A stretch of DNA of 64,000 nucleotides, taken from Verrucomicrobiota bacterium (GTDB lineage: Bacteria > Verrucomicrobiota > Verrucomicrobiia > Opitutales > Seribacteraceae). This document shows, piece after piece, positions 2,385 to 28,200 of this stretch (position 1 is its first letter; every line of letters begins with the position of its first letter). The DNA is taken from positions 384,001-448,000 of the forward strand of contig JAQBYT010000001.1 in assembly GCA_027622665.1 (NCBI GenBank). The letters are read 5' to 3'. The notes beneath the pieces were generated by a model. It saw only the letters and a program-made list of their open reading frames with translations. It did no database searches and was not told the DNA's origin. A program made the translations under genes and the position numbers.

Positions 2385-3068
2385 ATGAAATCCCAACATT
2401 ACATACTATCCCTTGTCCTAGGAATCATTTTCTTCTGTTCCCGCCTTGTTGCCGCCCCGGGCTTCGGTAAACTCCCAAAGCCTGACGAGCTTGTTTCCCT
2501 AGACGCCGTTACTCTGCAGACGAGCACCGGCAAATGGTTCACCGTGACAGTCAGTTTTACTCCGAGAAAACATCCCAACCCCGAAAAGGCTTTCAATGAG
2601 GATTTCATAGATGACGTGAAGTTGGATCTTTATATTTGCTTGCGCAATAATTCTCGTGAAAAAAAATTCAAGAGGGAACGGAAAAGGGACTTCATTGAGG
2701 CCGACCTGTATGACTATTACCATTCCAGCGTCGAAATTATCACTCTCAAGGTAGACAACATTCGAAAGGAATTACATTTCCTTATCTCGAACGAATTAGC
2801 AGAACGAGATGGCTTTAATCGAACAGTTAAGCCGGTCGGTCATATCGTGGAGATGACCCTAGGTGGGGTGCCCATCGCATTTAAGGAAGGAATAGTTTTT
2901 GAAAAGCATCGCCAAGAAAGCATCCTCGAAAAATTCAAAGAATTTGCCCAATCGAAGTCCAAGGCGAACGAGGGTTTATTGCTGCCCGCTCATTTGGTGA
3001 GCGCAAACTACTTGTCAAACGCACCGGCAGTAAAGATTGGTCCAAGCTCTTCTGCTTCGGGGCTCTGA
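2385..3068 (+). CDS. Exported protein, first gene of the pilus-like cluster (positional equivalent of Akkermansia Amuc_1102)
   Basis: Signal peptide MKSQHYILSLVLGIIFFCSRLVA; position upstream of PilM-like gene. Confidence 0.55.
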   Translation: MKSQHYILSLVLGIIFFCSRLVAAPGFGKLPKPDELVSLDAVTLQTSTGKWFTVTVSFTPRKHPNPEKAFNEDFIDDVKLDLYICLRNNSREKKFKRERKRDFIEADLYDYYHSSVEIITLKVDNIRKELHFLISNELAERDGFNRTVKPVGHIVEMTLGGVPIAFKEGIVFEKHRQESILEKFKEFAQSKSKANEGLLLPAHLVSANYLSNAPAVKIGPSSSASGL

Positions 3069-3120
3069 TCAGAACCTCTTTCGACAAGCACCCGAACAAA
3101 GTTTTTTCAGCCAGCCTAGA

Positions 3121-4881: not shown

Positions 4882-4909
4882 TTTTAAACTTTCCGCATCT
4901 CGCATCTTG

Positions 4910-6145: not shown

Positions 6146-6150
6146 TCCTC

Positions 6151-7503: not shown

Positions 7504-7670
7504 TTGTTTCGGAAAATGATCAGTGGATACGAAACAACCATTTTTACAGAGAAAAGGTTTCTATTTTGGAAGTTGACCCCGCAGATCTAAAACTGTTCCT
7601 TAATTGACAGGAATTATCAAGCTTTTTGAGCGTATCTCTTCTTTTTAACTCCATACACCTATGCCCGTAG

Positions 7671-10600: not shown

Positions 10601-11435
10601 GGTAGATTCATTGATTGACTGGACGGGTTCAATTTTAGGCATAAGGGAAGCAACTCTTTTGGTTAACGCCCTAAAAAGAAAACAAGGTACGGATTTGCTA
10701 AGTGCCCCACGGGTCACGGTCATGGATGGTCAGCCGGCAAGTATTACTATCGCTCAGGAATTCATTTACCCCACCGACTGGCAACTCCAGCAACAAGGAG
10801 GGGCAGGAGGGGGAGCAGGGGGAGCAGGTGGAGGCATACAGTTCCCTCAACCTGCACTTCCGCAATTTGATACTGTAGCACCCGATGATGAGCAACCTGG
10901 TTTTCGTGAAGTCGGTGTTGTCCTTGACGTCACTCCAAGGATCGAAAAATACAATTCAATCGCATTGGAGATAAATCCTAAAGTAACAGAGTTTGATGGT
11001 TTTATAGAATACGGGGGGCAGCAGATTGCGGCAGTCCAATCCTTTTCCGGCAGCGGCATAGTAACTTCGCCTTCAGGTATTCTCATGCCAATATTCTCGG
11101 TTCGAAAAGTGAGCACAACTGTAACCATCTTTGATGGTGCAACCGTTATTATTGGAGGGCTTACTCGCGAAGAAGTAAAGACAGTAAATGACAAAATTCC
11201 GGTTCTAGGGAATATTCCCCTCATCGGAAGACTATTTCAGTCGCAGGCGGAAAGTTATCAGAAGCGAAATTTGCTTATTTTCGTCTCGGCAAGTATTGTG
11301 AGCAGAGGTGGTTCCCCAGTGCGAGAAGTTATTCAAAACATCTCCCCGCAATCGATATTCAAAGATCCCGTGATCATGACGCCAACAGGCACGATAAGAA
11401 GACAGTTTAAGGGTGAGCTCGGAGGAGCCCCGTGA
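7671..11435 (+). CDS. Secretin (PilQ/GspD family, Amuc_1098-like) with Pro-rich N-terminus and TPR-like helical region
   Basis: QVEIETKFLEV, DLLSAPRVTVMDGQPASI, FREVGVVLDVTP, GATVIIGGL, KIPVLGNIPLIGRLFQS...KRNLLIFV. Confidence 0.93.
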   Translation: MKSLIADLARRKRAVVRTVFLLVGICAVSSGYAQSPPPLPPLPLVGEPVPGPDGFPPLPGLGGGEPAPVESPPLLPPLPGVLEPVDISPEAVDPLPLIDAGGPGVFPLGLIPSEPSTLPETELPPPLADGSNLSEPGKPDPVEVSGFSLPPVTDNAGLLRLLDEVRIRLRREDYQGAQALTEQTLRTFAETAENAFYLRQFRREQTNLYYRMAHKALKEKRYSLASQYLGHYQENVARDAEDRKRAREVRVGTQGKSDVSLVGKLVEELDEAKKELAEIRAKSGLPESDAKVDYERIMAQEQQELVKAKSRAERLLKKARIDSADGQYELAKDQVDEALSFLPKNVATIALISDLYKAKQQILWYRIGEAMQKGRVGNVQILVLEYQDVEKERRSEEVATLGIEEGPDFEGEMKKAREKAEQQAKLAERMLAGAKGNIRDKEYGKAQQDLVKITNYLEPSTRTWPIILDAAITRNQINLEKAEDARKAKDWELANQYTDEYRTGLLQDRNVMGAGDMDLGRPGLESTKGKGAVDNLMKRSDRMRGRIEDDMKNPYRRHISEFSPEREDQLEDLGKLLMRAKVQFINNDLTGAQETYRLIEARYSENYEAKQMLRRIAQVRQEESYLGYLQTRESMLEEINREWERPKVFERQIDDVKPVQETGNNLLEKLKTINIPAVQFFESPLPEVVAELQRLAKQFDFAEQDPTKKGVNIVVLQEAGEPPPNVTITLNGMALDRMISFISEMVGWSFDVRNDAVVLSKTGAGGGRPIGLETEFYEVSQGMKKRMIGEPAAGAGGADPFAPPGGGGGGGAAEDGAKIRDFLEQAGIPFEDARGHKFVFDDFQMIVTHQRRFLDLIERILERLDQDSSRQVEIETKFLEVQEGVLDEISFDWNMRWGARQPVFDSATGMPTIDSGGVEQFKYNKNFRGNSRTLALAHAPSGVERNIQITYDQNPEANQQFGQPIPMMPGNIGIGAGVDSLIDWTGSILGIREATLLVNALKRKQGTDLLSAPRVTVMDGQPASITIAQEFIYPTDWQLQQQGGAGGGAGGAGGGIQFPQPALPQFDTVAPDDEQPGFREVGVVLDVTPRIEKYNSIALEINPKVTEFDGFIEYGGQQIAAVQSFSGSGIVTSPSGILMPIFSVRKVSTTVTIFDGATVIIGGLTREEVKTVNDKIPVLGNIPLIGRLFQSQAESYQKRNLLIFVSASIVSRGGSPVREVIQNISPQSIFKDPVIMTPTGTIRRQFKGELGGAP

Positions 11436-11826: not shown

Positions 11827-14800
11827 ATGTCTTCCTTGCTGAAAAAGACGGCTAAAGTGAAATTATTGTTTCGCGGTGCAGTATGGATGATTTCGTTAGC
11901 TGGTATTATCGGAACAGTGGTTTTTTTGCTCTCGCGCCTGCCCGAGAATACTATTTCCACTAAAAAACAAGACGACCCCGTTCTCGCCCCTAATGGTACT
12001 CCCCGGGCTCTGGGAAAAGTGACTTTACCTAATGTCCCTTCGTCTGAATCTCTCGAATGGTGCTCTCCATCTCGAATAATCGCGACTAAAGCCGATCCGG
12101 TCTTCAAGCTTTTTGGCCAGTGGGTTGCTGCTCGTAAGGAGGGCAGGGCGGAAGTCGAGAAAGGCGTTGTTTTGGCGAAGGAGCGCCGGGAGGTTCTCGT
12201 TCACTTGATCCGTACCGACCCGGAGGCCGCCTTGTCCTTGGCAGTTCCGGAGATCGACAGGCACGATCTACCCAAGGCCATTCTCCCCTTCTTGGGCCGG
12301 TGGGTGAATACTTATGCGGATGTCGAAGCGGTTCATTTTTGTTTGGATCCAAACCACTTGGGCGGCTTCATCAGGCACACCGTCATTCTTCCTGATGGTC
12401 GTCGCCTGAAGGCATCTCTTTACGGAAAGCGCGAAAAACTTCCCACGATGAAGGGCCTCGCCATTCGGGGCATCGCTGTGGGCGATAAGTTGGCGGTGGA
12501 CGAAAATCCTGTCCGCCGCCTAGGAGAAACCGAACTTCGAGATCGCCAACTAGAAGGCTTGGCCGCAGTGGAAATTGCCGATGCAATATATGAATTTCCA
12601 CGCCGGGAAGGTGTTCTTGCCTTTGAGCGTCGAGTGCGTGAAGCCGAGCGCCGGGCCGGGCGTCATCGAGTGCGTTATCCGGTAATTGCCAGCAGTTTGG
12701 GCTCGAGTACGATTATTGACCTCAAGTACAAGGTGGTTACCGTGTCTTCCGATTGGGAGACGGCCAAGGAAGATGCGGAGAACAGCGGTGGACGGTTGGT
12801 TTGCATCGGTTCCGCTCAGGAAAATGAGGATGTTCGCAAGCTTTTGGCTGATGCCAACGTCATGGGCTTGTTTCCCGAATACAACGGCACGGTGCCATAT
12901 GCCTGGATCGGGGGGACGGATGACGAGAATACTAGTGGAAGTTCTTTCAACAAAGTTACGGACTCCACCGAATATTTTGACTTGAATGCTACGGAAGGAA
13001 ACTGGACTTGGCTCGACGGGACCACTTTTGCCGCCTATTCCAACTGGGCAGACGGCGAAAACGATAACGCAACGAACCCCGTGCTTGCGGAAGCGGAAGA
13101 CTTTGCCGTTATGGACTGGAATGCCGGCGGTCTCTGGCGGGACCTAAAGCGAGATTTTCATTTGCCATACGTTATAGAGATGGATCTTGGTGATCAGCCC
13201 GATGCGAGTGACGTTCCTATTTCCGACAACCGTAAAGTGTTGGTTATACGAGCTCGTTTTCAGGATGAGGGCGTGGAATACGCCGGATCGTCCAAGCCTG
13301 TTGTTGACCAGGATGGCAACATAATAAATCCCGACAAACAGCAAGATGTTTTCGAGCCCGTTACCGGACTTCAAGTGCGTCAAGAAATGGAAAAAGTACG
13401 AGAATTTTATCAACGGAATTCGGATGGCAAACTGAACCTGGACTATGTAATCACAGGAACCGTGACGATACCCTACAAAAGGTGGGAACAGCATGAAATG
13501 TTTGGTGACATCGCGACTGTGACCACTCCGGATTTTATGGATGCAGCGATAGTCATAGGAGCTCCAATGGCGCGAGCTGCGCAGGTGAGCCCCGAGGATT
13601 GGGATTTCAGTGGACCAGCCTTCAACGGAGTGATCGGCATAGAGGTGAATGCCAGTGGAGGCGGCTACCTTTATCCACCCCTTGTTCGAATCGAGGGTGG
13701 CGGAGGCGCAGGAGCGAAAGCCGAGACCTTTCTTGATAACAATGGTAGCATTGCATCGGTTTTGGTTACGGATACGGGAAGGGACTACACCTCCGTTCCC
13801 GCGATTACGGTCGAAGGGGCCCATCAAGACCCCAATGGTGACGCTAATGCCACGCTGAGTGCTAAGGTCGGAAGGACTGCGGTTTCATGGATATCCATCA
13901 CCACGGGGGGTAACCCCGGAGGGGTGGGCATGGTTGGCGCCCCGGGCTCACACGTCAATGCAGCGACATGGGATGCTGGTGTTGCGGTCCATGAGCTTGG
14001 GCATAACTTCGGGTTCCAGCATGCCAATCGGTACGAGTCCGTTGGCGAGAAAGCAATTAGCGACGAAGGCGGAACGATCGATTACGGCAATCCATATTCC
14101 GTCATGGGCACGGGAGGCATTGGAGCCGACCTTACGGTGGCAGCCAAATCCGTTGCCCAGTTTGGCTACACGACCAGTTCTGCCACGGGAGCTGACGTGA
14201 CCGTCCTTGCCACGGGAGCTGACATTGTGGCAAGCAGATGGCGTGAATTGAACGCCACCCGGCAAAACGTTTTTCGAGTCTACCGACACGACCACGGTTC
14301 AGCCCCATATCCATTGCGGTTAGGGTCCTACCATGTGATCATACCGACCGATGTCGACTTGCCTACTGATTTCAACGGGAGCATAACCGTGGCTATTGGC
14401 GGTCCGGGCACGGAGGCGACTGCCTCCGCCTCCGTTACCGGGTCTGACCGTAGTTACATTTTGGAGATTGAGAATCCCGGCATCGGTTTTTCGGAAGAGC
14501 CGAGAATCGAGTTGATTAACGAACAAAACGCCACTCTATTGCTTGATCCTGCTTGGATTCAGGTTTTGGCGGGCCAAAAATCGATAAAAGCCGAATTGCG
14601 AGATCGCTCACCGTCTTCCGCCAAGGGATTGCGAGCCATTCGTTTGTCCGCCTCCTCGAAAGCCCCTTACTCCTCCTACCTTGTCTCTTACAGGCAAGCC
14701 GCAACAAAAAATGGCCTGAACTTATTAAATGCCGATGGCTCCGACAACATTTTGCTGGATCTCACCCGCAACACGCCTGACGATTTTAACGACGGTTCCC

Positions 14801-17800
14801 TAATGATAGGGCAGACCTATTCGGACTACGACAGCGACATACACGTCACGCCCGTATCGCGAGGTGGAAATTCACCGATGGAATATTTGGAAGTCGCCGT
14901 GAACGTGGGGACAGTTGCGGCCGAAAACGCATCCGCCCCATTATTCTCCCTGCAGACAAGTAATCTTCGCCCGGAGGTAAATCAAGGAGTCGAATTTACC
15001 GTCATGTTGACCGGGGATGCCAACCTTTCGCGATATGCCTTCTCTTGGTATTACGACGAGAGACCTCTTATTGGTAACGCCTACCTAAACCAGCCAACAA
15101 TAATAAAGACTTTCGACTCCGTGGGGAACCATAACCTCCGTGCAGTGGTTTCCGACATGAAGGGTGGCGTATCCTCGCAAACCGTAGTCCTTGCCGTGGG
15201 CGAGCCCGAGCAAGCCGGCATATCGCGCATCGAGGGCGTGGTCGAATCCACCACCGGACCCGTGCAGGGGGCAAGGGTAGTCCTGCAAAAGGCTCCCGTC
15301 ATTCAGCATGTGGTCACCGTCTCGGGCGACCTTATTTCTTCTCGGATACCAGGGGGACAGGCGTACGCCACGAAATTCCTCATTGATGGTCAAAGGGCGC
15401 CTCGTCTCGAATTTCGACGAGGAGAGATTCACCGTTTTGAGTACGAGCCGTCCGCGGAAGGTTATCCAATCACTTTTTATTCCGCCCCGGACAGCGAGCC
15501 GGCCAAGGTGGAATTGAAGCTCATTTACTCTCCCAGAGTGGAAGAGCCGGGTTCGGGTTACAGGCAAAATCCGGCAGTCGTGCTGGATGGCGGAATTTTC
15601 GACTCCTACGAAAGCAACCTCATTCGTTCCTACGTCGAATATCTTGAGGAGAATGGTTCGAGCACGACCCTAGCCAGGATTGTTTACAAGCCATATGCAA
15701 AATCACTCCTGATGGATACCGGGGTAGAAGCTATACATACTCGCAAAGTGGCGGATACTCAAGGCGGCGATGGGCATCACCCGGCTTCCCCGCCTTCGGT
15801 CACTATTAGTCGGCAAAGTCTCTGGGAAGATTACAGCGATTTAAATGCCACGGCCAAAGCTTACGTAGATGGAGTGGGTACCATCTTCGTTCTAGAGGCC
15901 GGTGCGGGCTATCCGGATTCTCCATCCATCGCCGTTGTGGGGCGCGGCGTGGAAGCATCCGCATCGACCCAAACAATGGGGGTCACAAACGAAAAAGGCC
16001 AAACGCAACAGGACATGATCAAGAAAGTTTCCGTTGTCGACCAAGGTCAAGGTTATGACCTCAACACTACCTTGGCGACCGCCTTGTACCCCCCCAACCC
16101 TTTTGCCTACTGGTCCTTCGATCGCGAGGAATCCTTATTCCGCCAGAATTACTATCCCCGCAAGGACAAGCTTATGCTGGAACCCTCCCCCGGCTGGCTC
16201 CGACCCATTACCCGGAGCTTGAAAGCCCATTGGTCGATGGACGAGGAGAATTCCACCATGGAACTGAACGCTACCATCGCCGATCATCACATCGGGGCCA
16301 CTCCCGTTCTCGGGCAAAAAACCGATTACAACGCCACCATGGAACTGAACGCTACCATCGCCGATCGCTCCGAGTGGGGCATTCGAGGTCGAGCCATACG
16401 GCTTCAAGGTAATTCTACCGTCGAGGAATATCTCGCTCCTGATTCACCTAACAAATTTCTTGGCGATTCCTTTACGGTTTCCCTTTGGGTGAAGCCCGAT
16501 GGTAGCGGCAGTTTTCACGGACTGGCCTCCCAGGCCGGGACTGGGGATGCCTTTTCGCTCTACTGGAATACCGTTGATTTCATTGGAATTCTTTATCAAG
16601 CGGAGGAAAATGGCGGTTTGGTAAGCGACGTTGTTTTGGAGGGAGGTGATTTAAATGCCGGTGAATGGACACATGTCGCCTATGCCTTCGACGAAGACTC
16701 CGCGACCGCGAGCATGTATGTGATGGGTGAACTGGTGGCCAGCAAGACCTTTACTCTCGCTGGCAACTTCAACAAAATTTCTGGGCGTGCCTCGGACTTT
16801 ATTCTAGGTAAGGCCTTTACGGAAACCTCAAGCACCGAATACCTCAACGGTTTTCTAGACGAAGTCAGCGTCTTCGACCGTGCCTTGGAGCCACGTGAGA
16901 TTCGCCAACTGTCTGGCGATTTGTTTCTCGATCTTTCCGGACAAAACCGTCACGGCGTCGCCATGGATATGCCGATGAACGATCCCGACGAGTTGAACGC
17001 AGGGGTGGTGGCGGGCAACCAAAACGACGGCCTCGACCTTAGCGGCGCCCGATACGTCGACCTTTCGCAGACCGCCCAAGACTTTGCCGCGCTCAGCACG
17101 GGCAGCGTCAGCTTCTGGTTCAAGACGACTTCCTTGGAGGACGGAACGCCCGCTGACGGTACTATTCTGGCCGCCTCGGACAAAGATGCCCCCGATTCCT
17201 TCTTTCGACTTATGGTTCGCGATACGGGTCAGCTCCAGTTTCATGTGTCCAACGACGGGGTGGAGGTTACGCGCTTTTATACCGAGAACATCTTCAACGA
17301 CTTCAAGTGGCACCACGGGGTGCTTGTTGTAAACGAGGCGGACTCACTGTTTTACGTCGATGGCATAGCCGTGGGGTTGCGTATTGCAGGACAAGGGCAA
17401 AGCGCTCCCCGTGGCTTTTTCGCCGACATTGAGAACATCGATTACATGGGCATCGGTCGCCACCAAACGAGCGAGGCAAACCAAACCAATTATTTCAGCG
17501 GCGAACTCGATGAAGTCTGGATTTTCGATCGTGTTCTCGAGGCTCCGGAAATATCTTTTTTACACGATTTGCGCCCCGAAGTTAAAGATGTCTTTCGAGC
17601 CTCGCTGGAGGCTCGCGTGGATTCAGTGGGAACGGTGAAAGTGACTGCCCCCGGAGCAGGCTACAAGGAGACCCCGGCGGTAACCTTTTCTCCGGGCGAT
17701 ACAGTCGGTTATACGTGGATAGGCTCCGCCGAGGACGGGAACGTGTCTCGGTGGTTGCCCTTGAACTTGGCACCCGGGTCCAGTCAACCGGATGAGTGGG

Positions 17801-20800
17801 ATGCCTCCGCCACCTACGTAAAGGGTGATTTGGTTCGTTACCGAAACAACGCTCTAGCCAATTGGTATACCTATTCCGCCTTTCGCGAGAACAACGACAA
17901 GAAACCCCTGGAGGCGAACCTCATGGAGAACAATTCTCGTCACATTTATCCCGATGCCGTGTGGCAAAGGCATGAACGCAGCGAGGGCAGTATGACCTAC
18001 GGAGTTCTCTATCTCCAGCCGACAGGCCTGGAAAGCATTCTGCTAACCAAGGACATGGGTCCGGCGGCGGTTTCAAATAATTTCAACCACTTTCTCCTGC
18101 CTGACGGCAACCCAGTCGAGCGGAGATACGTCGAATACGTCGGCGAAAACGGAACTGCATACGAGCTAAGCGGAGGTCATGTGTGGGCTCATTCATTTGC
18201 GTCTTCCCAATATTATTCACTACCGAAGCCTGGGCCCGCGTCTGGCGTTTTTGGATTTCGGGCTCCGCCCTCGATTGTCATCGAGGGCTCCGAAACCGAT
18301 GACAACGCCACCGGTAGTCATCTGTTCTATATTGATCCGGTGGAATCTGTTCTCATTACAGATCCCGGAAACGGATATTTGGATCCCGAAGGGATTGCTG
18401 TCGGGGATGTGCGCTTTCGCGGAAAGGGCTCTACCCCCCCTCGGTTCGAGGCCATAATGAGGGAACAAGCCATCCATGGATTCATTTTAAGAAGGCCGGG
18501 CACCGGGCCCTATGACTTCGACGTCGAAGGCAACTCCACCCTCGACGGCATTTTTGATACGCTTACGGAGAGAGGATTGGGCGGTCTCAGCGATGGTGAA
18601 AGATCTCTGAGTATGCTAAAGCCAGCCGCATTAGCGGGAACTCCGGAAATAACGACGAAAGATAACGGCGACATTGTTTATTATCCGGCATCGGAGGGGT
18701 TTTGGGGCACTCGCGACGTTTTCTATGACGCCAAAGACGGTCAATTGAAGTTGCGCAATCCCGAGCGACTGTTGAGTTTCATTGGAGACGGCACAGGAGA
18801 GAAGCCGCCCGTGGTCGAGGTATTTCTCTCCGACAAATTGGACGTGGAACGGGGCGTGGCCCCCCGAAAGTACGAAGTCAAGGCTATGCGGATAATGCCC
18901 GCGGAAGACCTGGGATCGGCGAAACCCGACTACGGTTCCGGCTGGGTGAAGCCGCCCACGATTTATTTCGATTTGAATGCGACCGCTGACCGCCAAGTTA
19001 ATGCGAGCAGCTTGACTTTTACGAACATGTTGTCCCACGTACAGATACTGGACAGTGGGCTCGGCTACTCCGTGCCGGTGGAAGTTAATTTCCACGGCGG
19101 GTATGACATCCCATGGAATTACAAGGACTTGAATCATTCCCGAGCCCGCATTCTGCCCGACGAGGTCGATGAGAACGGAACCCTTTCGGCGGATGCCATC
19201 GAGTTGCTGGATCCCGGTACCGGCTATAGTCGACCTCCCTTCGTTTCCATAACCGGCGGCGGAGGAGTCGGTGCTCGCGCTCGTGCTTTTCTTAATGACA
19301 GCGGGGAGGTCGCCGCTATCCTCGTTACGAACGGTGGTCGCGGCTATTTCAATCTGGACGCAAACAACACCCCCAAGGCGGTCTTGGTTTATCCCGCGGG
19401 ACAAGCGACAAAGGATGCCAACGTTACTATGCGCTTGGGTGGCTCTCTCGACGAAATTCCCGTGCAAGGCTTGGAATCGACCCGTTTACACCATATTGCC
19501 CCATGGGTACTGATTACGGACAACGCCGGAACGGGCAAAGGCGCCACTGCATTTGCCAAGGTGGTGAACGGTCGTATTGAGAAAGTGATCGTGGAAAACG
19601 CAGGTAACAGTTATCTCGACCCACGCATTGAAATCCTTACCGCGTCTCCAAATAATGCAGATGCATTATTTTTATCCAACCCCAATTACAGGGACGAGAT
19701 CGACGGCTGGATACCATTTAATGCCAGATGTTCAGCGATTTTCAGCAATGGCCAGATCGTCGAAATCATCGTAGATAATCCCGGGTCGGGTTATGCTAGC
19801 CCTGAGATTGTGGTGGCGGGGACGGGCTCGGGCGTGGAGGCAATACCCGTGTTCGGCGATACAGGCAAGATCGTCCGCATAGTTTATGACGATCCTGCTC
19901 TCAAGAACGAGGAACTGAGCCCAGTGTCCTCGCCCTCCGGGGCGGGCCAGGGATTTTCCGAACGTCCATGGGCATTGGGCGAGGTGGTGCGCGTAACAGT
20001 GGTGGACGAGTATTCCTACTCTCGAGCCAATCATTTTCACGAAGCTGCTTTTCCATTGAAAACGGCGGACCTCTTCATTGGCTTGCCTGCCACGCGTGAC
20101 TCCGCGGGTGATCAAGTTTCCGAATTCACGATCCATGACCATGGCATTGGTTACGGTGCCGATGCCCCTTCCATCCGCATCGATTTCAATTCCAGCCATG
20201 CCAAAAGTTTCAGAGACGCTTGTGCCACAGCTTTCCTTACCAGGGGGTTGAGCGAGATGGTTCTCGAAGGCAACGGAACCTATGAAGATTCCAACGGCAA
20301 GTGGCGGTCCGTTTTCGAAGAAATTCCGGTAGTAGAAATTCATCGCGCAAACCTTGAAGAAGAAGATGCCTACAAGCTGACAAGTGTTGGGCGCAACGGG
20401 GATATCGATTACGATCCATTGGCCCACCGGCGTTTCATAGACGTAGTGGTCGACGATGCGTTTCCTTCTTACTCCAGTTATTCTCTTTCGGATTGGGACC
20501 GCGAGGGTTTGGGTGGCGAAATTCACACTCTCGATTCGGCCCCCTCCCTTGATTGGCGTGTGGTGACCAAGTGGGAGCCCGGCAAATACCGGAAGGGAGA
20601 CGTCGTATGGTGGGAGACCGATGCCTACGAAGCTCTCGCCACCTTTGTCTCGGGGAGTTTGAAAACGGAATCCGCCGGAGAAGACGGGGACCAGTTTTGG
20701 CGCAAGCTTAACGGGCAAAGCGGCGCCATGTCGGCCTTAGGTGTAGTAACAGCCTTCAACCATGAATTTGGATCTAGTAGCATATCTGTTTCTCGGGTAC

Positions 20801-23800
20801 GGAGGGAGAATGGTTCCGCAGCGTTCTTTCACATAGGTGACAGATCTCAAGAGACTGAAATTCTTGGTGAAAACGTATATACTTGGGCGTACCTGCCCGA
20901 CGCTTGGATTTCCTATACCGACAGCAACGGTTATTATTCGTTTCCGAACCTCGAGCCGGGATTGTACAATGCGGCCGTGCTTGCGGAGGATTCCAACTTG
21001 GAAGAAATTACTTTTCGCGAGGATGGTAATTCGACCGTTACCCATGTGGTGTACGTGCCGGGCATTCCATCGCTTAGGCTGGAAACCGACGAAAATGGCG
21101 TAGGCTCGAGCAGTCTCATTTGGCCGGAAGACGTATTGCGTCTGGGAGAGTCGGCTTCCACCAAGAAAATCCTCAAGGGGATCGGAGCCGGGTTTCGCCC
21201 CGGGACTCTCCCTGTGTTTTCGATCACTGCGGATTCCAAAAACACCGGCAGAGGGATACCCAATCTTTCGGTAACCGTAAATCCTGACGGTTCCCTCGAC
21301 ATAGAGACCGTGGACGAGAATTCATCCAATCATAATTCGGCTGACAGTTTCACGGTGTTTTACGGCTCCACAATTTCAGGGCTGAACTTCAAGGAAGATT
21401 ACTTTTTCGATCGGCTTGACGATGCCTATTGGATGGGAAGAAAGGCTGCAGTGGATGCCAATGCGTCCCGACTCATCATCTCTCCGTCGGCAGGTGTGAA
21501 TTCGGTGGAAATGCCAATTTCATCTTCTGAGGCGGGCGACTTGAATATGACCTTTTCGGCAAAGGGCTACGACTGGAACGGTACGCTTCTGGATACCGAT
21601 GACATACAGTGGAAACTGGAGTTCGACTTCAATTCGACCGAGGGGAACCTAACGAAGTTGGCATCTCTCAGCACTGTTGACGGCAATTCCACAACTTTGA
21701 CTTTGCGCTCGACTCTGCGATCGGGCAAAATCGCCTTGGTTCGGGTGGATGCCGGAGGCACAGGTTATTCGGACGACAATTCCACCCTTGTTGAAATCTT
21801 TGGCGATGGGTCGGGCGCCTTCGCTCGCATTTCCGAAGTCAACTCCACCGATGGTGCAGTCAAGGCAATCGAAGTGGTTGAGGGCGGAAGGGGTTATTCG
21901 GTGATTTCCGGCATTCGTTTGACCCGCCCGGAAGGCCAGATCGGAACCGATGCCAATTTGACCGCCTTAGTTGGCGGAGGGCTTTGGCTGAAAGCGACCT
22001 TGGGATCCCTTGAGCAAAAGGTGCGACTGGAGGCATCCCATAGGGCTCAACTGTCGGAAAAGGAGCAGTGGTCGGATCTCCACTTCGATACGGTTCGGGA
22101 GGATTTTATCGATTGGAATGACGATAACGACAGCGACGGACTCAACAACTCCTTGGAGTTTAGCTATCGAACCAACCCTTGGAACGCCGATTCCGATGGC
22201 GATGGTCTTAGCGACGGAAACGAAACGACCTTGATGACCGACCCCAATAATGCCGATACCGATTCCGATGGCTTGCTCGATGGCGTCGAAACCAATACGA
22301 ATACATATGTTGATGTAAACAATACCGGAACTAACCCGAAAAATCCTGATACCGATGGGGATGGCTGGCCCGATGGGCTTGAAGTGAGTTTTGGTCTGGA
22401 TCCTCACAAGACGGAAAAGGGCGGAGCGGGCATCTCCGGAATGATTTACTTTAAAGGAGAGATGAACGGCACCCTCTATGTTTTTGCCATTCCCGAGGGC
22501 GAGCCTCCTTTCGCTGAGGAGACGGCCGTCAGTGAGTTTTTGGGAGGCGACAAACCTCTCACTCCCTCTTCCGCAACCTTTTATTTTTTCAAGAACCTGC
22601 CGGCTGGAAAAAAATACGAAATACATGCTTTTATTGATCGGGGCGAAAGTGGTGACCCAAGTAACAAGGTTTACGATTACGGTGAGCCGGTCGGCAGCTA
22701 TTCCGGCTCGTGGGACGGGAATCTTTCCGAGGACCGCTCACAGGTGAATTTTGTCGTTAAAGATCCGCCGCCTCACCTCACGTTGTTACCAATGGTTGGG
22801 TCTGTTATGGGGGGAGTCGATGGCAAAGAAGAAATCGCAGTTTATCTTAATCCCGGGGTTAAAGTTTTTCATCTGAAGCCTGTGGCCAATGATGATTATG
22901 ATGGGATAATTGATCCTAAAACCGTTAGTCCCAGCAGCACCTATCCCTTGGATGGAAACGCTACAGGGATAATTACCATCACTGAGTTGGACGCAACCGA
23001 AGGGAGCGGAACCCTAGAGGTTTCATCTACCGCTCTGCCGGGAGTGTACCACTTGATCTATGCGGCTGCCGATTCTGCGGGTAGCGCTAGTGCCATTACT
23101 CGGATAATCGTAATTCGCGACAGCATTCCGCCGGAGATTTCATTGTTTCCCGATGAATCAGTAGTAGTGGCCTATGAATATGAAGCGGGCACGAAATGGA
23201 AAGATCCGGGCTATTCGGCAATTGACGTCGTTGACGGCAACTTGACTCACAAAGTGGGCGTCGCGCTACCTTCGGGTTGGGATTCTGGTGACGTGGGAAT
23301 CGTTTTGGGGTTTTACAATTTAAATTATACTGTTCAAGACATCGCAGGAAACCAAGCGCTGGCCACTAGAATAGTGGAAATTGTAGATACCAGTGCTCCA
23401 GATCTGTTACTCTTTGGCAGTCCGTCCATGAACCTGAACAAAGGTGAAACCTTCCTTGAGCCCGGTTATTCGGCTCTCGATACTGTGGACGGCGATCTTA
23501 GCAACAGGGTGACGGTTTCAGGATCTGAAACTTTAGAAGAAAACGTTACCGGAACTTACGAACTTAACTATTCGGTAATCGATGATTCCGGCAACGAGAT
23601 TAATAGCACACGAACCATCTACGTAGCAGACTGGAACTACACCATTGCGGGCAAGGCGATGGATGGATATCTCGTTGGGGCAAGCGTTGTTTTCGATATT
23701 GACGGAAATGGTACTCACGATCTGTCGAGCCCAGTTCTTACCGATGAAAGCGGCGCTTTTTCCTTTGCCTTTACGACGGAAGAATTTCTGATGACCGATA

Positions 23801-25200
23801 CCAATACAAACGGAGCCATAGATCCCGGAGAGGGTAGGATACTCGTTTTCGGGGGGACCGATTCCTCTACGCTTGAGCCTTTTACTGGACTTTACGTAGC
23901 GGATGCCAACTCAACGGTCGTAAATCCCCTGACCACTCTTTCCTCGGCTTTTGTCGAGCAAGGGCTTTCTCGGGAAGACGCCAAGTTAAAGGTGGCGGAC
24001 GCACTGGGGTTGTCAGCTACCTTGGACTTGTACAATTATGATCCGATTGCTGCAGCCGCGGAGGGAGATGCCAATGCCAGTCAAGCTCTTGCCGCAAGCG
24101 CTCGGATCGCCAACGCAATTCGGCAGGGGACGGCCTTCGTGAAATACGCCTCGGACGGGAATGCTTCGGGAAAAACGATCTCCACTCAATTGATTACGGA
24201 AGTTGCCGCCAAAATTGCCGACGGGACGGTTTCTCTCTTTGGCGATGCGAGCGAAATGCAGAAAGTTCTTACAAGCGTGGTAACGACTTTGGGCATTGCC
24301 GGAGTCACCGACGAAGATTTGGCCGGAGCGGCCCAAATGTCGGTGGTTGCTGATGGAATGATCGTCGAGTCTCTCATCGCCAAAGGGACTAACCCCGATA
24401 AACTTGCGGTCGAATTGGCAAAGATTCAAGCGGTCGTCGAGGATAGCATAGTACAGGGGTACGACAAGTTGCGGCTCGAAGGCGGAACACCCGCCACCCT
24501 GGCCATCGCCAAAAGCAAGGAATTGCTTTCCGGGCAAACGTCCGACTACAAAGGGAGCGTTAACATCTTCCCGCCCACGGCGTCCAACGCGGTGGCGGCC
24601 CTGCCTTTCGACCAGTGGATTCAGGGAGCAATCATTCTTAATCTTCATGCTAACGATGCGGATGGAGATACCGTAGGCTTTTCGATTAGTTCGGGCAATC
24701 CCGATGCCGACAAGGATGGGGTCGCCGCTTTTTCCTTGAGCGAGCAAGGACAACTCTTGGTGGCGGATGCGGACGAAGCTGGCTACCTGTCTGTCGGTGA
24801 AGCCATGGTCGTCGCGTTGCGTTTGACCGACGGAAAAGGCCTTTATGGGACAGCAACCGTTACCGTGAAACGCGGCAATGCTCTTGCATTGAACACCGCA
24901 GAAGTGGAGCAGGCCCAAAACTGGCATCAATCCAGTTGGTTGGGAGACTTTTTTACCAATGGCTCGTCTTGGGTGTTTCACGAGAGCCTAGGCTGGCTCT
25001 ATGTGGTTTCGGACAGAACAGGAGGGTTTTGGTTTTGGGATGTCGGGCTAGAGGCATGGTGGTGGACGAATTCAACCTTCTTTCCCCACTTTTATCTTGT
25101 TCGGCAAACAGGCTCAGGTTGGGGATATTGGGATCTAAAAGCGGTTCCGCCGATATACTTCGATTTTAACGAGAATAGTTGGAAGGAGAAAACTAAATGA
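11827..25200 (+). CDS. Giant (4457 aa) multidomain surface zinc-metalloprotease/adhesin: N-terminal TM and putative prodomain, C-type lectin, metzincin (M11-like), PKD, GxGY repeats, 2x LamG, CBM5/12-like, TSP3-like Ca-binding repeats, DUF5011-like Ig, cadherin-like, Trp-rich C-terminal module
   Basis: CTLD (WETAKEDA..GGRLV..AWIGGTD..EGNWTW, ~12727-13180); HELGHNFGFQH at 13990-14022 with YGNPYSVMG Met-turn; LamG FTVSLWVK/WTHVA/LDEVSVFDRAL; DSDGDGLSDG repeats ~22117-22410; PGYSAIDVVDGNLT. Confidence 0.85.
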   Translation: MSSLLKKTAKVKLLFRGAVWMISLAGIIGTVVFLLSRLPENTISTKKQDDPVLAPNGTPRALGKVTLPNVPSSESLEWCSPSRIIATKADPVFKLFGQWVAARKEGRAEVEKGVVLAKERREVLVHLIRTDPEAALSLAVPEIDRHDLPKAILPFLGRWVNTYADVEAVHFCLDPNHLGGFIRHTVILPDGRRLKASLYGKREKLPTMKGLAIRGIAVGDKLAVDENPVRRLGETELRDRQLEGLAAVEIADAIYEFPRREGVLAFERRVREAERRAGRHRVRYPVIASSLGSSTIIDLKYKVVTVSSDWETAKEDAENSGGRLVCIGSAQENEDVRKLLADANVMGLFPEYNGTVPYAWIGGTDDENTSGSSFNKVTDSTEYFDLNATEGNWTWLDGTTFAAYSNWADGENDNATNPVLAEAEDFAVMDWNAGGLWRDLKRDFHLPYVIEMDLGDQPDASDVPISDNRKVLVIRARFQDEGVEYAGSSKPVVDQDGNIINPDKQQDVFEPVTGLQVRQEMEKVREFYQRNSDGKLNLDYVITGTVTIPYKRWEQHEMFGDIATVTTPDFMDAAIVIGAPMARAAQVSPEDWDFSGPAFNGVIGIEVNASGGGYLYPPLVRIEGGGGAGAKAETFLDNNGSIASVLVTDTGRDYTSVPAITVEGAHQDPNGDANATLSAKVGRTAVSWISITTGGNPGGVGMVGAPGSHVNAATWDAGVAVHELGHNFGFQHANRYESVGEKAISDEGGTIDYGNPYSVMGTGGIGADLTVAAKSVAQFGYTTSSATGADVTVLATGADIVASRWRELNATRQNVFRVYRHDHGSAPYPLRLGSYHVIIPTDVDLPTDFNGSITVAIGGPGTEATASASVTGSDRSYILEIENPGIGFSEEPRIELINEQNATLLLDPAWIQVLAGQKSIKAELRDRSPSSAKGLRAIRLSASSKAPYSSYLVSYRQAATKNGLNLLNADGSDNILLDLTRNTPDDFNDGSLMIGQTYSDYDSDIHVTPVSRGGNSPMEYLEVAVNVGTVAAENASAPLFSLQTSNLRPEVNQGVEFTVMLTGDANLSRYAFSWYYDERPLIGNAYLNQPTIIKTFDSVGNHNLRAVVSDMKGGVSSQTVVLAVGEPEQAGISRIEGVVESTTGPVQGARVVLQKAPVIQHVVTVSGDLISSRIPGGQAYATKFLIDGQRAPRLEFRRGEIHRFEYEPSAEGYPITFYSAPDSEPAKVELKLIYSPRVEEPGSGYRQNPAVVLDGGIFDSYESNLIRSYVEYLEENGSSTTLARIVYKPYAKSLLMDTGVEAIHTRKVADTQGGDGHHPASPPSVTISRQSLWEDYSDLNATAKAYVDGVGTIFVLEAGAGYPDSPSIAVVGRGVEASASTQTMGVTNEKGQTQQDMIKKVSVVDQGQGYDLNTTLATALYPPNPFAYWSFDREESLFRQNYYPRKDKLMLEPSPGWLRPITRSLKAHWSMDEENSTMELNATIADHHIGATPVLGQKTDYNATMELNATIADRSEWGIRGRAIRLQGNSTVEEYLAPDSPNKFLGDSFTVSLWVKPDGSGSFHGLASQAGTGDAFSLYWNTVDFIGILYQAEENGGLVSDVVLEGGDLNAGEWTHVAYAFDEDSATASMYVMGELVASKTFTLAGNFNKISGRASDFILGKAFTETSSTEYLNGFLDEVSVFDRALEPREIRQLSGDLFLDLSGQNRHGVAMDMPMNDPDELNAGVVAGNQNDGLDLSGARYVDLSQTAQDFAALSTGSVSFWFKTTSLEDGTPADGTILAASDKDAPDSFFRLMVRDTGQLQFHVSNDGVEVTRFYTENIFNDFKWHHGVLVVNEADSLFYVDGIAVGLRIAGQGQSAPRGFFADIENIDYMGIGRHQTSEANQTNYFSGELDEVWIFDRVLEAPEISFLHDLRPEVKDVFRASLEARVDSVGTVKVTAPGAGYKETPAVTFSPGDTVGYTWIGSAEDGNVSRWLPLNLAPGSSQPDEWDASATYVKGDLVRYRNNALANWYTYSAFRENNDKKPLEANLMENNSRHIYPDAVWQRHERSEGSMTYGVLYLQPTGLESILLTKDMGPAAVSNNFNHFLLPDGNPVERRYVEYVGENGTAYELSGGHVWAHSFASSQYYSLPKPGPASGVFGFRAPPSIVIEGSETDDNATGSHLFYIDPVESVLITDPGNGYLDPEGIAVGDVRFRGKGSTPPRFEAIMREQAIHGFILRRPGTGPYDFDVEGNSTLDGIFDTLTERGLGGLSDGERSLSMLKPAALAGTPEITTKDNGDIVYYPASEGFWGTRDVFYDAKDGQLKLRNPERLLSFIGDGTGEKPPVVEVFLSDKLDVERGVAPRKYEVKAMRIMPAEDLGSAKPDYGSGWVKPPTIYFDLNATADRQVNASSLTFTNMLSHVQILDSGLGYSVPVEVNFHGGYDIPWNYKDLNHSRARILPDEVDENGTLSADAIELLDPGTGYSRPPFVSITGGGGVGARARAFLNDSGEVAAILVTNGGRGYFNLDANNTPKAVLVYPAGQATKDANVTMRLGGSLDEIPVQGLESTRLHHIAPWVLITDNAGTGKGATAFAKVVNGRIEKVIVENAGNSYLDPRIEILTASPNNADALFLSNPNYRDEIDGWIPFNARCSAIFSNGQIVEIIVDNPGSGYASPEIVVAGTGSGVEAIPVFGDTGKIVRIVYDDPALKNEELSPVSSPSGAGQGFSERPWALGEVVRVTVVDEYSYSRANHFHEAAFPLKTADLFIGLPATRDSAGDQVSEFTIHDHGIGYGADAPSIRIDFNSSHAKSFRDACATAFLTRGLSEMVLEGNGTYEDSNGKWRSVFEEIPVVEIHRANLEEEDAYKLTSVGRNGDIDYDPLAHRRFIDVVVDDAFPSYSSYSLSDWDREGLGGEIHTLDSAPSLDWRVVTKWEPGKYRKGDVVWWETDAYEALATFVSGSLKTESAGEDGDQFWRKLNGQSGAMSALGVVTAFNHEFGSSSISVSRVRRENGSAAFFHIGDRSQETEILGENVYTWAYLPDAWISYTDSNGYYSFPNLEPGLYNAAVLAEDSNLEEITFREDGNSTVTHVVYVPGIPSLRLETDENGVGSSSLIWPEDVLRLGESASTKKILKGIGAGFRPGTLPVFSITADSKNTGRGIPNLSVTVNPDGSLDIETVDENSSNHNSADSFTVFYGSTISGLNFKEDYFFDRLDDAYWMGRKAAVDANASRLIISPSAGVNSVEMPISSSEAGDLNMTFSAKGYDWNGTLLDTDDIQWKLEFDFNSTEGNLTKLASLSTVDGNSTTLTLRSTLRSGKIALVRVDAGGTGYSDDNSTLVEIFGDGSGAFARISEVNSTDGAVKAIEVVEGGRGYSVISGIRLTRPEGQIGTDANLTALVGGGLWLKATLGSLEQKVRLEASHRAQLSEKEQWSDLHFDTVREDFIDWNDDNDSDGLNNSLEFSYRTNPWNADSDGDGLSDGNETTLMTDPNNADTDSDGLLDGVETNTNTYVDVNNTGTNPKNPDTDGDGWPDGLEVSFGLDPHKTEKGGAGISGMIYFKGEMNGTLYVFAIPEGEPPFAEETAVSEFLGGDKPLTPSSATFYFFKNLPAGKKYEIHAFIDRGESGDPSNKVYDYGEPVGSYSGSWDGNLSEDRSQVNFVVKDPPPHLTLLPMVGSVMGGVDGKEEIAVYLNPGVKVFHLKPVANDDYDGIIDPKTVSPSSTYPLDGNATGIITITELDATEGSGTLEVSSTALPGVYHLIYAAADSAGSASAITRIIVIRDSIPPEISLFPDESVVVAYEYEAGTKWKDPGYSAIDVVDGNLTHKVGVALPSGWDSGDVGIVLGFYNLNYTVQDIAGNQALATRIVEIVDTSAPDLLLFGSPSMNLNKGETFLEPGYSALDTVDGDLSNRVTVSGSETLEENVTGTYELNYSVIDDSGNEINSTRTIYVADWNYTIAGKAMDGYLVGASVVFDIDGNGTHDLSSPVLTDESGAFSFAFTTEEFLMTDTNTNGAIDPGEGRILVFGGTDSSTLEPFTGLYVADANSTVVNPLTTLSSAFVEQGLSREDAKLKVADALGLSATLDLYNYDPIAAAAEGDANASQALAASARIANAIRQGTAFVKYASDGNASGKTISTQLITEVAAKIADGTVSLFGDASEMQKVLTSVVTTLGIAGVTDEDLAGAAQMSVVADGMIVESLIAKGTNPDKLAVELAKIQAVVEDSIVQGYDKLRLEGGTPATLAIAKSKELLSGQTSDYKGSVNIFPPTASNAVAALPFDQWIQGAIILNLHANDADGDTVGFSISSGNPDADKDGVAAFSLSEQGQLLVADADEAGYLSVGEAMVVALRLTDGKGLYGTATVTVKRGNALALNTAEVEQAQNWHQSSWLGDFFTNGSSWVFHESLGWLYVVSDRTGGFWFWDVGLEAWWWTNSTFFPHFYLVRQTGSGWGYWDLKAVPPIYFDFNENSWKEKTK
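16253..16366 (+). repeat. Perfect 33-nt direct repeat (16253-16285 and 16334-16366), 81 nt apart, encoding TMELNATIAD
   Basis: CCACCATGGAACTGAACGCTACCATCGCCGATC occurs twice. Confidence 0.95.
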
Positions 25201-28200
25201 AAAGAATGAATGGCAAATGCCAAATTGCCTTTATGGCTCGACTAACCTTACTTTGCCTAGCTTTTTTCGTGAGCCACCGGACTCTTAGGGGTCAGGTGTT
25301 GGTTCCGGATCTCAGAATCGACTCGGATGATTTCATCGAGGTTTTCGTAGGAGGTACTTTTGACGTAACTTTTCGCATTTTTAATGACGGAACGGAAGAG
25401 ATCTTCGCCGGGGAAAGCATTACTTGGGCTGTCGAGGTCAATGGCCCGGACGGGCAAGCCGTACCTTCATTAAGTAGAACCGGGCAAATCCTAACCGGAC
25501 TGCCCATGAATCAAAGTACGCCCGATGAAACAGTAAGCCTTCGCATGCCATGGGCGCAAGCCGCCCAGTGGAGCAACAACGCCAGATGGACCATCGCAAC
25601 ATCCGTGGTTACTCCAAGAGATGTAAATGGGACCAATAATCGCGATACCTCCACTTTTTCCTTGGTTATACCGGATGTCACTTTGAATAATTTAGTGGGG
25701 CCCGTAGCCGCTCGACCCGGGCGAAACGTCAGCGTTTCAGGTACTGTAGCCAATGTCGGGCGAGTCCAAACGCAACCGAATGTCTACTTCCGGGTAGAGG
25801 CAAGGTTGCTGCAGAATGGAACGGAGGTGGACAAGCAATCGATAGTCTTACCTAATCAAAGCGCACTCTCTCCTTTTCCTTTTGATAGCGGGGATACGAT
25901 CGACTTCACGATCAATGAATTATTCATTCCCATAGACGGCAACGGCACCTACGACGTGATTGTGAACCTGGATGCCGGATCACCTGATATTTTAATCGAG
26001 CATACGGAAAACAACAATCAAGCAACTGTTCAGTTTGACGTAAGTTCAAGTGCAAGCATACAGGTCGTCGACGGTAGTTTCTTTAGTGATACCGGCACCT
26101 TTCAGGGGATGGCCCCGGCTCACTTTCGTTTTGCCGTTCGCAATGTTGGAACGGGCCCCGTTGGGGTCGGGGATGCCTTTCAGGCAACCATTGCTCTCTC
26201 TCGAGACCAAAGTGGGATTGATGCCGACGATTTCATTTTACGTGAATTCGATCTTGGAGGAAGTGGGCTGGGTTTAGGCCTTAGGCCCAATGAGACCGTA
26301 ACGCTTGACTGGATTCAGAGGTTGCCCGACAGTTTCGAAGGGGATTTTTACATTGTGGCGAATTTGGATGGTCAAACATTTGTCTCGCAACCTACTCCAT
26401 CCATCACCTTGCGATCAAATAATTCCGGGGATACCATATCGGTGAGTGAGGGAAAAAACAGCTGGAGCTCTCGTCCTTCTTATGATCAAACGGGCCGATA
26501 CGTTGCCTTCGAATCTTCCGTTGGCGGAATTGTTAACATATTCCTGCTGGATACAATCTCCAACCAGGAAACTCAGGTAACGAGGAGCTTTAATAATGCT
26601 GCAGCCGATGGATCTAGTTTTGCTCCCAGCTTAAGTGCAGATGGAAAATTCCTAGCCTTTCATTCCAGCGCTTCGAACCTAGTTCCCGGTGATACTAACG
26701 ATCATACGGACGTTTTTCTTTTTGATCGAGAAGCCAATGGAATTTTTCGTCTGTCGACAAGTGTTGATGTCGGCAGTCCTGATGGAGGTAGTTATTACCC
26801 TTCGGTCAACGGTGACGGCTCGGTAGTGGCTTTCGAATCACTTGCGTCAGACCTTAGTGCTACGCCGCAATCTTTTTCGGGAAGCAATATCTTTGTTTGG
26901 GACTCAAACGGAACCACCTTAAACAAACTATCACCAATTACCGCGGCGGGAGACTTCGCAAGCTTAGACGCCGATATCAGCGAGGACGGGAATCGCGTCG
27001 TGTTCACCTCTTATGCCACCAATTTCAACCTATCGAACTTAAGTTCATCGGACAACAACGAGTATTCAGATATTTTTCTTTGGGAGCGAAATACCTCGAA
27101 AATGTATTTGGCGAGCGTGACTTCAGGCCAAGCAAGGACAACCGGTGGCGCGTCTTCGGAGTCCGTAATCAGTGGCGACGGGAAGGTCATCGCCTATCGT
27201 TCTTCCGCAAAAAACCTTGTTACCGAGAAGGGTATTTCAACGATCGAGATTAAGGATGCAGGAGTGGGCTATACGCGGACTCCTTCCATTGCCATAACCG
27301 ATGCGAGCGGTTTAGGTTCAGGGGCAACTGCGGAAGCCCATATCAACACTTATGGAGAGATCATCAGGGTCTCGGTGTTATTGCCGGGCAAATTATATAA
27401 AGAGCCCAGAGTAACAGTGGTGCCCGACCCTGCTGATGTCGGGCCTAGCCGCCTTGCCATTCTTGAGGCTCGTCTTACACACCCCGAAGGCGATGTTTAT
27501 AGAGTGCCCGCGCAATCCTTGATTGACGGTCAGCCCGAAATCAGTCGAGCGAGTGAAAGTGTACTTTCGGTTGGAGGCGACAAGGGAAGTCGTGAGCCGA
27601 CCCTCAATTACGATGGTAGTTTGTTGGCCTATTCCACACAGGCGAGTAATCTCTTGGTTGACAAACTCGAGCGAGAAGATCGTAGGGTTTTTCCGAATGC
27701 AACCTTTAGGATGGCAAGAGCAAGAGCTGTAATCGGTGGCCCAATTGGCGAAATCGAGGTTCAGAATTCCGGCGAAGGGTATCAAGACGGACAGCTTCGA
27801 ATAGAGGATCTTTCCGGTAGCGGATCCGGGGCTCTTGCCCTATATCACGTTGATAATTACGGACGTATTGCCGACATATCCATCTTTAATTCGGGGAACA
27901 ACTACGACTATTCCCAAACCATGATATCCATAGACAACCCGAGGGCGGGAACGGGCTTTCAGTTGAAGGACATCCGCCATCAGGTCACCAGTGGCATTGG
28001 AAATAATCGATCCGGCGGCGGGACCATTCTTCGCCTGGAAATGGATGACAATGGTTTGGGTTACACCAAAGAACAGATTCTCATGCAGGGTGCGGGCATA
28101 ATTATCGACGGAGATGGCGCTGATTTGGACAATGATGGAAAGCCCGATGCAAAGGTAAATCCCGATCGTATCCATTTGGGTGACAATGGTGAGGTTTTCC

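Follow-up and report, generated by a model that had tools for sequence, protein, structure and literature searches.

The stretch of DNA analysed here (hereafter the window) comprises 64,000 nucleotides from a Verrucomicrobiota bacterium of the order Opitutales, family Seribacteraceae (GenBank assembly GCA_027622665.1, contig JAQBYT010000001.1, positions 384,001 to 448,000 of the forward strand), and carries an open reading frame (ORF) for a giant protein of 4457 amino acids (aa). An earlier note on this DNA had proposed that single domains of the protein are split by up to ~1870 aa of nested inserts, and all the motifs on which it relied lie in frame within ORF 11827-25200 (aa 1133-1156, 1183-1219, 1427, 1467-1695, 1702, 2868-2903 and 3027-3051). 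Sequence comparison indicates that the outermost of these splits is real, i.e. that a carboxypeptidase-regulatory-like domain is interrupted in this protein by an insert of ~1870 aa, and we consider it probable, with a good margin for error, that the best explanation of the whole is a forked, nested surface protein of a marine Opitutales-type bacterium, with the branches described below. The parts of the insert and of its hosts are as follows, in window coordinates and in residues of the giant protein, level 0 being the outermost host.

11827..25200, + strand: giant host protein, 4457 aa (ORF list; P0002, a relative with 90% identity; 22 more orthologues, 2720-5358 aa long)
15223..15294, + strand: level 0 host, N half of the carboxypeptidase-regulatory-like sandwich, aa 1133-1156 (19 distant homologues intact; splice scan; profile continuity)
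15298..15504, + strand: level 1, cupredoxin-like N half, aa 1158-1226 (its profile finds intact domains; hhalign to positions 14-72)
15502..15876, + strand: arm 1, a predicted pair of outbound half-modules of GxGY type (G1 and G2, beta modules), levels 2/3, aa 1226-1350 (complex prediction; PHROG virion structural matches)
15871..16089, + strand: arm 1, putative tip module G3/G4, level 4, its last strand at aa ~1926-1932 and its last loop open to the LamG pair (alignment; model pLDDT of 82-92 in most blocks)
16090..16134, + strand: level 5, N-terminal strand of the outer LamG, aa 1422-1436 (joined directly to the body of the domain in the relatives L054 and L055; structural alignment starts here)
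16201..16917, + strand: level 6, complete inner LamG, aa 1459-1697 (Pfam PF13385, E 1.9e-24; separate structural matches over model residues 234-472)
16918..17577, + strand: body of the outer LamG, aa 1698-1917 (Pfam PF13385, E 5.6e-20; CBM40 match)
17602..18342, + strand: arm 1, predicted return halves (end of G4, G5, G6) with a variable loop insert, aa 1926-2172 (complex-prediction contacts)
18343..20361, + strand: arm 2, ~12 further GxGY half-repeats, aa 2173-2845 (motif list, alignments, secondary structure of the L055 model, PHROG)
20380..20556, + strand: level 1, putative cupredoxin-like C half, degenerate here, aa 2852-2910 (family profile aligns to positions 87-125)
20560..20901, + strand: second insert in the same outer-domain loop, aa 2912-3025 (alignments; most orthologues lack it)
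20905..21081, + strand: level 0 host, C half, aa 3027-3085 (E 4e-4 for Pfam PF13620, positions 33-78 of 82)

A homologue search for the protein returned 42 sequences, 23 of them family members and 19 of them distant proteins (P0024-P0042) with the same peptidase-PKD front end. In all 19 distant homologues the outer domain is unsplit and follows directly after the PKD domain, with 4-18 residues between its two motifs; in family members of full length, which excludes the truncated P0018 and P0020, the same motifs are separated by ~1700-2000 aa. A profile of the N-terminal 808 positions of the distant homologues aligns through positions 539-746 with aa 951-1160 of the giant protein, and then resumes far downstream, positions 747-774 matching aa 3028-3055. 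We also slid every possible partner of each half against a profile of the intact outer domain (splice scan). Of 3233 windows tried as C-terminal partners of the N half, the best started at aa 3024-3025 and scored 29.0 bits, the best elsewhere being 13.8; the N half alone scored 5.6, the C half alone 17.3 and the native continuation of the N half 3.7. Conversely, of 2990 windows tried as N-terminal partners of the C half, the best ended at aa 1156 (28.7 bits, against 24.0 for the best elsewhere). The gap between the two halves is 1514-2060 aa in 28 of the 40 loci that we fetched, namely those in which both half profiles fall in one ORF. Pfam gives no match to the outer N half alone and scores the C half at 21.1 bits for PF13620 (cut-off 32.3), and the domain occupies the orthologous post-PKD position of proteins annotated with PF13620. 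The second insert of the same loop may be CBM5/12-like, a resemblance for which there is no supporting Pfam match.

The outer split of the earlier note is thus borne out by the splice scan, by the unsplit distant homologues and by the resumption of their profile. Its remark that linear annotation would miss the domains concerned was also correct, since the two LamG domains are all that Pfam recognises across the insert (no other match within aa 1157-3026 exceeds its cut-off); over the whole protein it reports these two, the PKD domain, surface immunoglobulin (Ig)-like domains, a repeat of TSP3 type and weak matches to peptidases. Homologues with a smaller insert or none at the same points, which the note had suggested looking for, do occur, both as the 19 unsplit proteins and, further inside, as L054 and L055, which lack the inner LamG; a separate search for shorter homologues returned five proteins, all of them fragments or family members.

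Just inside the outer domain the note had placed a second split domain, similar to cupredoxins. A search of 1.84 billion representative sequences with the N half found 59 proteins, many of which carry intact domains. From 47 candidates, two were removed by name and six in which the C-terminal motif was not found, and in the 127-column profile of the remaining 39 hhalign placed the N-half profile on columns 14-72 (probability 98) and the C-half profile on columns 87-125 (probability 87), the first of these matches being partly circular, as the intact set had been found with the N half. The C-half profile falls in the second half of 35 of the 39 intact domains. Moreover, the family profiles of the two halves have an identical best non-self match in their own genome, a single intact domain, on which they lie side by side; this domain exceeds the cut-off for PF25489 (32.7 bits), and weakly matches multicopper oxidase and nitrite reductase. 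Neither the 38 N halves nor the 32 C halves contain a cysteine, so that the ligand set of a type 1 copper site is incomplete; the intact relatives show a His-Pro and a Cys-x-x-His-x-x-Met pattern, and because the cysteine has been lost from all C halves there is no copper site here.

Several observations count against this part of the interpretation. In the splice scan the C half of the present copy ranks only 204th of 3172 windows (41.9 bits), and in eight of 30 orthologues it is likewise not the top partner of the N half; PF25489 is matched by none of the 38 N halves and none of the 32 C halves, Pfam as a whole gives no match to either half, and the C half here is 24-41% identical to its orthologues. 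The model of the entire cupredoxin-like insert of L055 reaches a mean confidence (predicted local distance difference test, pLDDT) of 74.5 and a predicted template modelling score (pTM) of only 0.49, and a covariation analysis (72 sequences, effective number 61) is noisy, the arm 1 contacts discussed below being absent from its top pairs. The most serious rival explanation builds on such points: it accepts the outer split, the LamG nest and arm 1, and holds that the two cupredoxin-like halves of this copy have ceased to make up a common domain, or that arm 2 consists of modules folded locally one after another and not of a nested rod, for which the many tight hairpin junctions of arm 2, permitting local closure, and the low confidence of the L055 model at aa 618-685 can be cited. 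Yet in 22 of 30 orthologues the N half finds its top partner in the C half, both halves are ordered alike in all full-length orthologues with a pLDDT of ~70-83 in the L055 model, look-alike junction motifs are paired by eye in arm 2 as they are in arm 1, and two weak covariation pairs join aa 2409/2415 with aa 2783/2787. We therefore regard this rival as rather improbable, though deserving of attention. The cupredoxin-like split of the earlier note accordingly holds at the level of the family, through its profiles and the 22 orthologues; the pairing in this particular copy, whose low rank does not bring it out directly, is weakly suggested by comparison with its relatives.

Two unrelated database proteins show comparable features: P0085 (aa 844-1014) has an insert of ~75 aa near the same cupredoxin-like loop, and in P0072 (aa 1778-2208) a cupredoxin-like domain is apparently split near this loop by ~330 aa, the latter case being weak. 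The insert of P0085 suggests that the loop is generally tolerant of inserts.

Between the two cupredoxin-like halves lie ~18 half-repeats, each consisting of a strand, a GxGY motif and two further strands; they are the building unit of the stalk, to which the note had given no name. By eye, look-alike junctions suggested that halves 1 and 2 of arm 1 close with halves 6 and 5. When aa 1226-1350 were co-folded with aa 1931-2176, the interface score (ipSAE) was 0.78 in three runs, the best of three controls giving 0.00; a mark of this kind was reached by 116 of 157 solved pairs and by two of 215 mismatched pairs, counts that apply only roughly here, where our own alignments were used. The runs share at least 82% of their contacts, the pLDDT of the partners is at least 73, and the more than 400 confident contacts are in nested register (1251 with 2151/2152, 1290 with 2074, 1298/1300 with 2063/2064, and 1342 with 1940/1941). 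A model of aa 1226-2176 based on 51 sequences (pLDDT 75.0, pTM 0.76) folds as one unit without the far end of the insert. Memory of a solved complex on the part of the predictor is unlikely, because the module has no sequence relative among solved structures, where nothing was found below E 0.47. These predictions support the closure of halves 1 and 2 with halves 6 and 5; for the tip module, G3/G4, we infer the pairing on other grounds than contacts. The variable loop insert of the return halves weakly matches CBM_5_12 (Pfam E 0.0044, below cut-off).

The GxGY module also occurs unsplit in the same protein, at the following two places.

13618-13890, + strand: unsplit GxGY pair in the peptidase domain, aa 600-685 (PHROG match)
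21718-22020, + strand: unsplit GxGY pair in an Ig-like domain, aa 3300-3385 (PHROG match)

Both of these match PHROG virion structural families, with E-values down to 1.7e-12, and matches to the module in the Atlas are confined to unnamed clusters, mostly viral. Fold searches with the L055 model were dominated by LamG matches, and have no bearing on either the cupredoxin-like or the GxGY fold.

The note had drawn the entire insert as a hairpin stalk of outbound and returning halves with lectin-like heads displayed on it, and a single hairpin of this kind, in which the first outbound modules pair near aa 2760-2850, is the next explanation to consider. The two outermost splits are indeed concentric, GxGY half-repeats flank both cupredoxin-like halves, and the partners offered to the complex predictor did not include aa 2760-2850. 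However, the segment aa 1226-1350 makes its confident contacts with aa 1931-2176 in nested register, ~670 aa before the cupredoxin-like C half, and this region forms a unit by itself, so that one hairpin across the whole insert is very unlikely. What stands of the earlier picture is the nested out-and-back chain with its lectin-like heads; what does not is the single hairpin. With arm 1 predicted to close at around aa 2172, aa 2173-2845 would have to make up another branch, from which the chain returns to the cupredoxin-like domain. This arm 2 is probably a second nested rod with side modules, its putative pairings being read from junction motifs and from the secondary structure of the L055 model.

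At the tip of arm 1, one LamG domain appears to be interrupted by a complete second one, as the note had proposed. L054 and L055, two loci of one genus, lack precisely one segment, which begins with the second N-terminal strand and ends with the inner LamG body; what remains reads as one ordinary LamG. The model of aa 1226-2176 matches the CBM40 structure 2v73_B (carbohydrate-binding module, CBM) over model residues 199-692, i.e. aa 1424-1917, with a Z score of 20.8, a root-mean-square deviation (rmsd) of 2.5 and 177 of 182 residues aligned, a range that denotes the first and the last aligned residue only; other matches of the same model cover aa 1459-1697 separately (model residues 234-472). 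The L055 model matches CBM40 over its single LamG (Z 19.0, rmsd 2.0, 175 residues aligned). Both LamG domains of the present protein exceed the cut-off for PF13385, and show the beta-sandwich fold with its N-terminal strand. It could be argued that the two domains swap their first strands, or that they are a plain tandem, given that a generic LamG profile scores either N-terminal strand nearly equally with either body (90.9 vs 90.2 bits for the two strands), a result that weighs against the nested assignment, and given the limited meaning of the structural range. A profile made from L054 and L055 nevertheless favours the first strand (136.0 vs 132.8 bits), these relatives drop the second strand through the inner body as one unit, and the model matches cover the long and the inner range separately; we see little room for a swap or a tandem, and the note's LamG within a LamG is upheld by the outer LamG of the model and by the relatives without the inner one. 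The heads are of a glycan-binding, CBM40-like type as judged from the models, a shared fold that shows no function. Toxin structures also appeared among the LamG fold matches, and a relationship to toxins was rejected, as they were listed merely for receptor-binding domains of the same common fold.

The N-side of the insert was matched in 53 of the 76 genomes of the family, covering all five genera and 21 of the 26 near-complete genomes, and one weak N-side match was obtained outside the family among 24 genomes of the order. Wherever the contig extends far enough, the 40 fetched loci have a secretin gene before the host gene and a second giant gene after it. An assembly chimera or a set of chance motif matches, to which a metagenome-type assembly in 66 contigs and the shortness of the motifs might lend colour, can practically be set aside, since the order and spacing of the architecture recur in dozens of independent genomes and metagenome contigs. 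The close homologues belong, by their source names, to Opitutales, and several of the contigs bear marine labels. BLAST searches of the own genome revealed no second copy of the split-domain halves.

Relatives gain and lose whole units at the same types of loop; for example, P0011 carries a C-type lectin in a GxGY loop, and, compared with the distant homologues, the host protein is enlarged in its N-terminal part by further inserts, which measure 60-110 aa. A Cys/His-rich insert, possibly a zinc site, is located in arm 2 near aa ~2610 in P0008, P0009, P0013, P0017 and P0019; it is present in most orthologues, and deleted in the present copy and in L053-L056. L055 (aa ~2215-2570 of ORF 4912-17292), and L054 likewise, has an extra nest between the C halves of the cupredoxin-like and the outer domains, which by eye consists of a CBM-like half, a C-type-lectin-like half, a GxGY module and closing halves. 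Two loci of different genera each have a single in-frame stop (L062:5690-5692 and L063:10650-10652), in both cases in the variable loop that follows half-repeat 5 of arm 1; the frame continues without an obvious new signal peptide, and the stops may reflect an assembly error, a pseudogene or a two-chain form held together by the split domains. L059 contains several frameshifts, and L060 an N gap.

Outside the insert, the host protein and its neighbourhood contain the following features.

3037..11435, + strand: upstream operon from a PilM-like gene to the secretin gene (Amuc_1101-, Amuc_1100- and Amuc_1098-like; syntenic in relatives)
11875..11931, + strand: the sole strongly hydrophobic stretch of the giant protein, aa 17-35 (hydropathy scan), a putative membrane anchor or signal
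13990..14022, + strand: HExxHxxGxxH zinc motif of a metzincin-like peptidase domain, aa 722-732 (sequence; Pfam Reprolysin_4/5 below cut-off)
14974..15189, + strand: PKD domain immediately N-terminal of the split domain (Pfam PF00801, 23.9 bits)
24892..25197, + strand: Trp-rich C-terminal domain (phmmer on the own genome)
25197..37151, + strand: downstream partner giant, 3984 aa, with GxGY repeats (4-base overlap with the host ORF; syntenic in relatives)

The HExxHxxGxxH motif characteristic of metzincins is present in 74 of 87 entries of a redundant orthologue set. The Trp-rich domain, to which neither NCBIfam nor Pfam gives a match, is common to 30 other ORFs of the genome, many of them large, and is a possible sorting or anchoring signal. 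With NCBIfam scores that stay below cut-off, the genes upstream are related to a pilus-like cluster (Amuc_1098/1100/1101). The downstream giant also has a propeller-like region, as well as Big_7 domains that are apparently interrupted by inserts, and nesting is probable there too. Between the N-terminal region and the peptidase domain of the host protein (window 12700-13200) is a C-type-lectin-like insert that the distant homologues lack. Elsewhere in the genome, contigs C2, C34 and C22 contain ORFs of 13430, 8761 and 5008 aa, and many LamG-like matches fall in the two longest of them.

Following the chain along arm 1, one passes from the carboxypeptidase-regulatory-like host into the cupredoxin-like domain, module 1/6, module 2/5, module 3/4, the outer LamG and the inner LamG. 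This path amounts to six insertion levels, of which the host and LamG levels are derived from unsplit homologues, modules 1/6 and 2/5 from complex prediction, and the cupredoxin-like level from family profiles; module 3/4 is inferred. The forked, nested protein would have evolved from a widespread verrucomicrobial protein composed of a peptidase, a PKD and a carboxypeptidase-regulatory-like domain, one loop of which may have taken up a cupredoxin-like domain lacking the copper cysteine. That domain would act as a fork, two branches leaving and returning through one of its loops. In arm 1, three GxGY beta modules would form a rod, every one of them joining an outbound with a return half, and its tip would be a LamG/CBM40-like domain that holds the second LamG in its first loop; arm 2 probably resembles this rod and bears side modules. 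As both ends of an inserted module are close neighbours, any loop could accept a further module with the host left intact, and repeated insertion would build rods in which outbound and return strands lock together. The rods might thus raise the LamG/CBM40-like heads off the main chain for adhesion to particles or cells, and the peptidase domain may cut bound protein. Taken together, the sequence features make a membrane-anchored or secreted surface adhesin likely, displaying lectins and bearing a protease; it would be exported, and may be tied to the neighbouring pilus/secretin genes. A bolder proposal, which we advance tentatively and with somewhat less confidence than doubt, is that a free-living marine bacterial family has built, for the most part from phage-virion-type modules, a forked surface structure whose insert of six levels and four fold types is 20x the size of its ~90-residue host, that the GxGY module is a general 'plug-in' unit which closes on itself and whose junction motifs set the pairing of outbound with returning halves, and that the protein folds innermost-first after export, possibly within a pilus/secretin machine.

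If these assignments are right, the protein is an extreme case of the distance (~1870 residues) at which the halves of one domain could fold together, and the question can be tested on a natural series of relatives, some of which carry inserts at the loops concerned while others lack them. The GxGY module, previously an unnamed repeat of phage virions, gains a predicted pairing rule that may explain many phage baseplate and neck proteins, and that might recommend it as a scaffold for the design of branched proteins. For marine ecology, the family would represent a conserved, probably adhesive surface structure in an abundant uncultured lineage.

Nested insertion as such has precedents. The available part of a survey of 48,551 insertion events (PMC13114784) describes mostly single-level cases, the median insert having 115 aa and the median host 199 aa, together with a six-level bifurcating case in cyanobacterial RNA polymerase; its supplements may list deeper ones. 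Like the protein studied here, the Si3 insert of the beta-prime subunit of that polymerase is, as far as these sources extend, recursive (A1-B1-C-B2-A2), six levels deep, bifurcating in its hosts and elongated (PMC13114784, PMC10895346). Si3, however, has ~545-690 aa, is cytoplasmic and belongs largely to one hybrid-motif family, whereas the present insert has ~1870 aa, is presumed extracellular, and combines four fold types in one path within a host that it exceeds ~20x in size. No sandwich-barrel hybrid motif family was found in the Pfam and NCBIfam scans of our protein. In repeats-in-toxin (RTX) adhesins such as AhLap, according to the accessible portion of PMC12077191, a split Ig-like stalk domain projects a carbohydrate-binding head, and by analogy the present protein would work alike, a split domain projecting a head of ligand-binding type. 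The RTX adhesins, though, have one to three levels, heads of 17-28 kDa and a type I system, in contrast to six levels, two long arms and pilus/secretin neighbours here, and no RTX repeats were found among the eight Pfam matches of our protein at E up to 0.01 or in NCBIfam. The streptococcal antigen I/II (SpaP) likewise has an out-and-back chain whose interlocked segments raise a binding head, but its stalk consists of intertwined alanine-rich and proline-rich segments rather than of split globular beta domains, to judge from the portion of PMC7732690 at hand.

By sequence matches the closest likeness of the GxGY module is to T4-like phage virion proteins (phrog_701, 460, 708, 438 and 6005), which were matched with E-values down to 1.7e-12 and include PF25489-type domains; phrog_6005 was also matched by four of the 38 cupredoxin-like N halves and by two of the 32 C halves. 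Here, in contrast, the module is part of a conserved single-copy chromosomal gene, and not of a phage virion. Flagellin, with its domains D0-D3, also forms a nested out-and-back hairpin, which is helical, polymerising and of unrelated folds. The literature searches, judged by their listings and covering few subscription papers, brought up no specific description of this architecture in Opitutales or of a comparable heterotypic nest, and six levels is the deepest nesting found in print in the parts of the sources that were available. Nested insertion and out-and-back stalks are therefore already known, and what sets the present case apart is the ratio of insert to host, the mixture of folds along a single path, the forking, the occurrence of phage-like parts in a chromosomal gene that is conserved, and the control series that nature itself provides.

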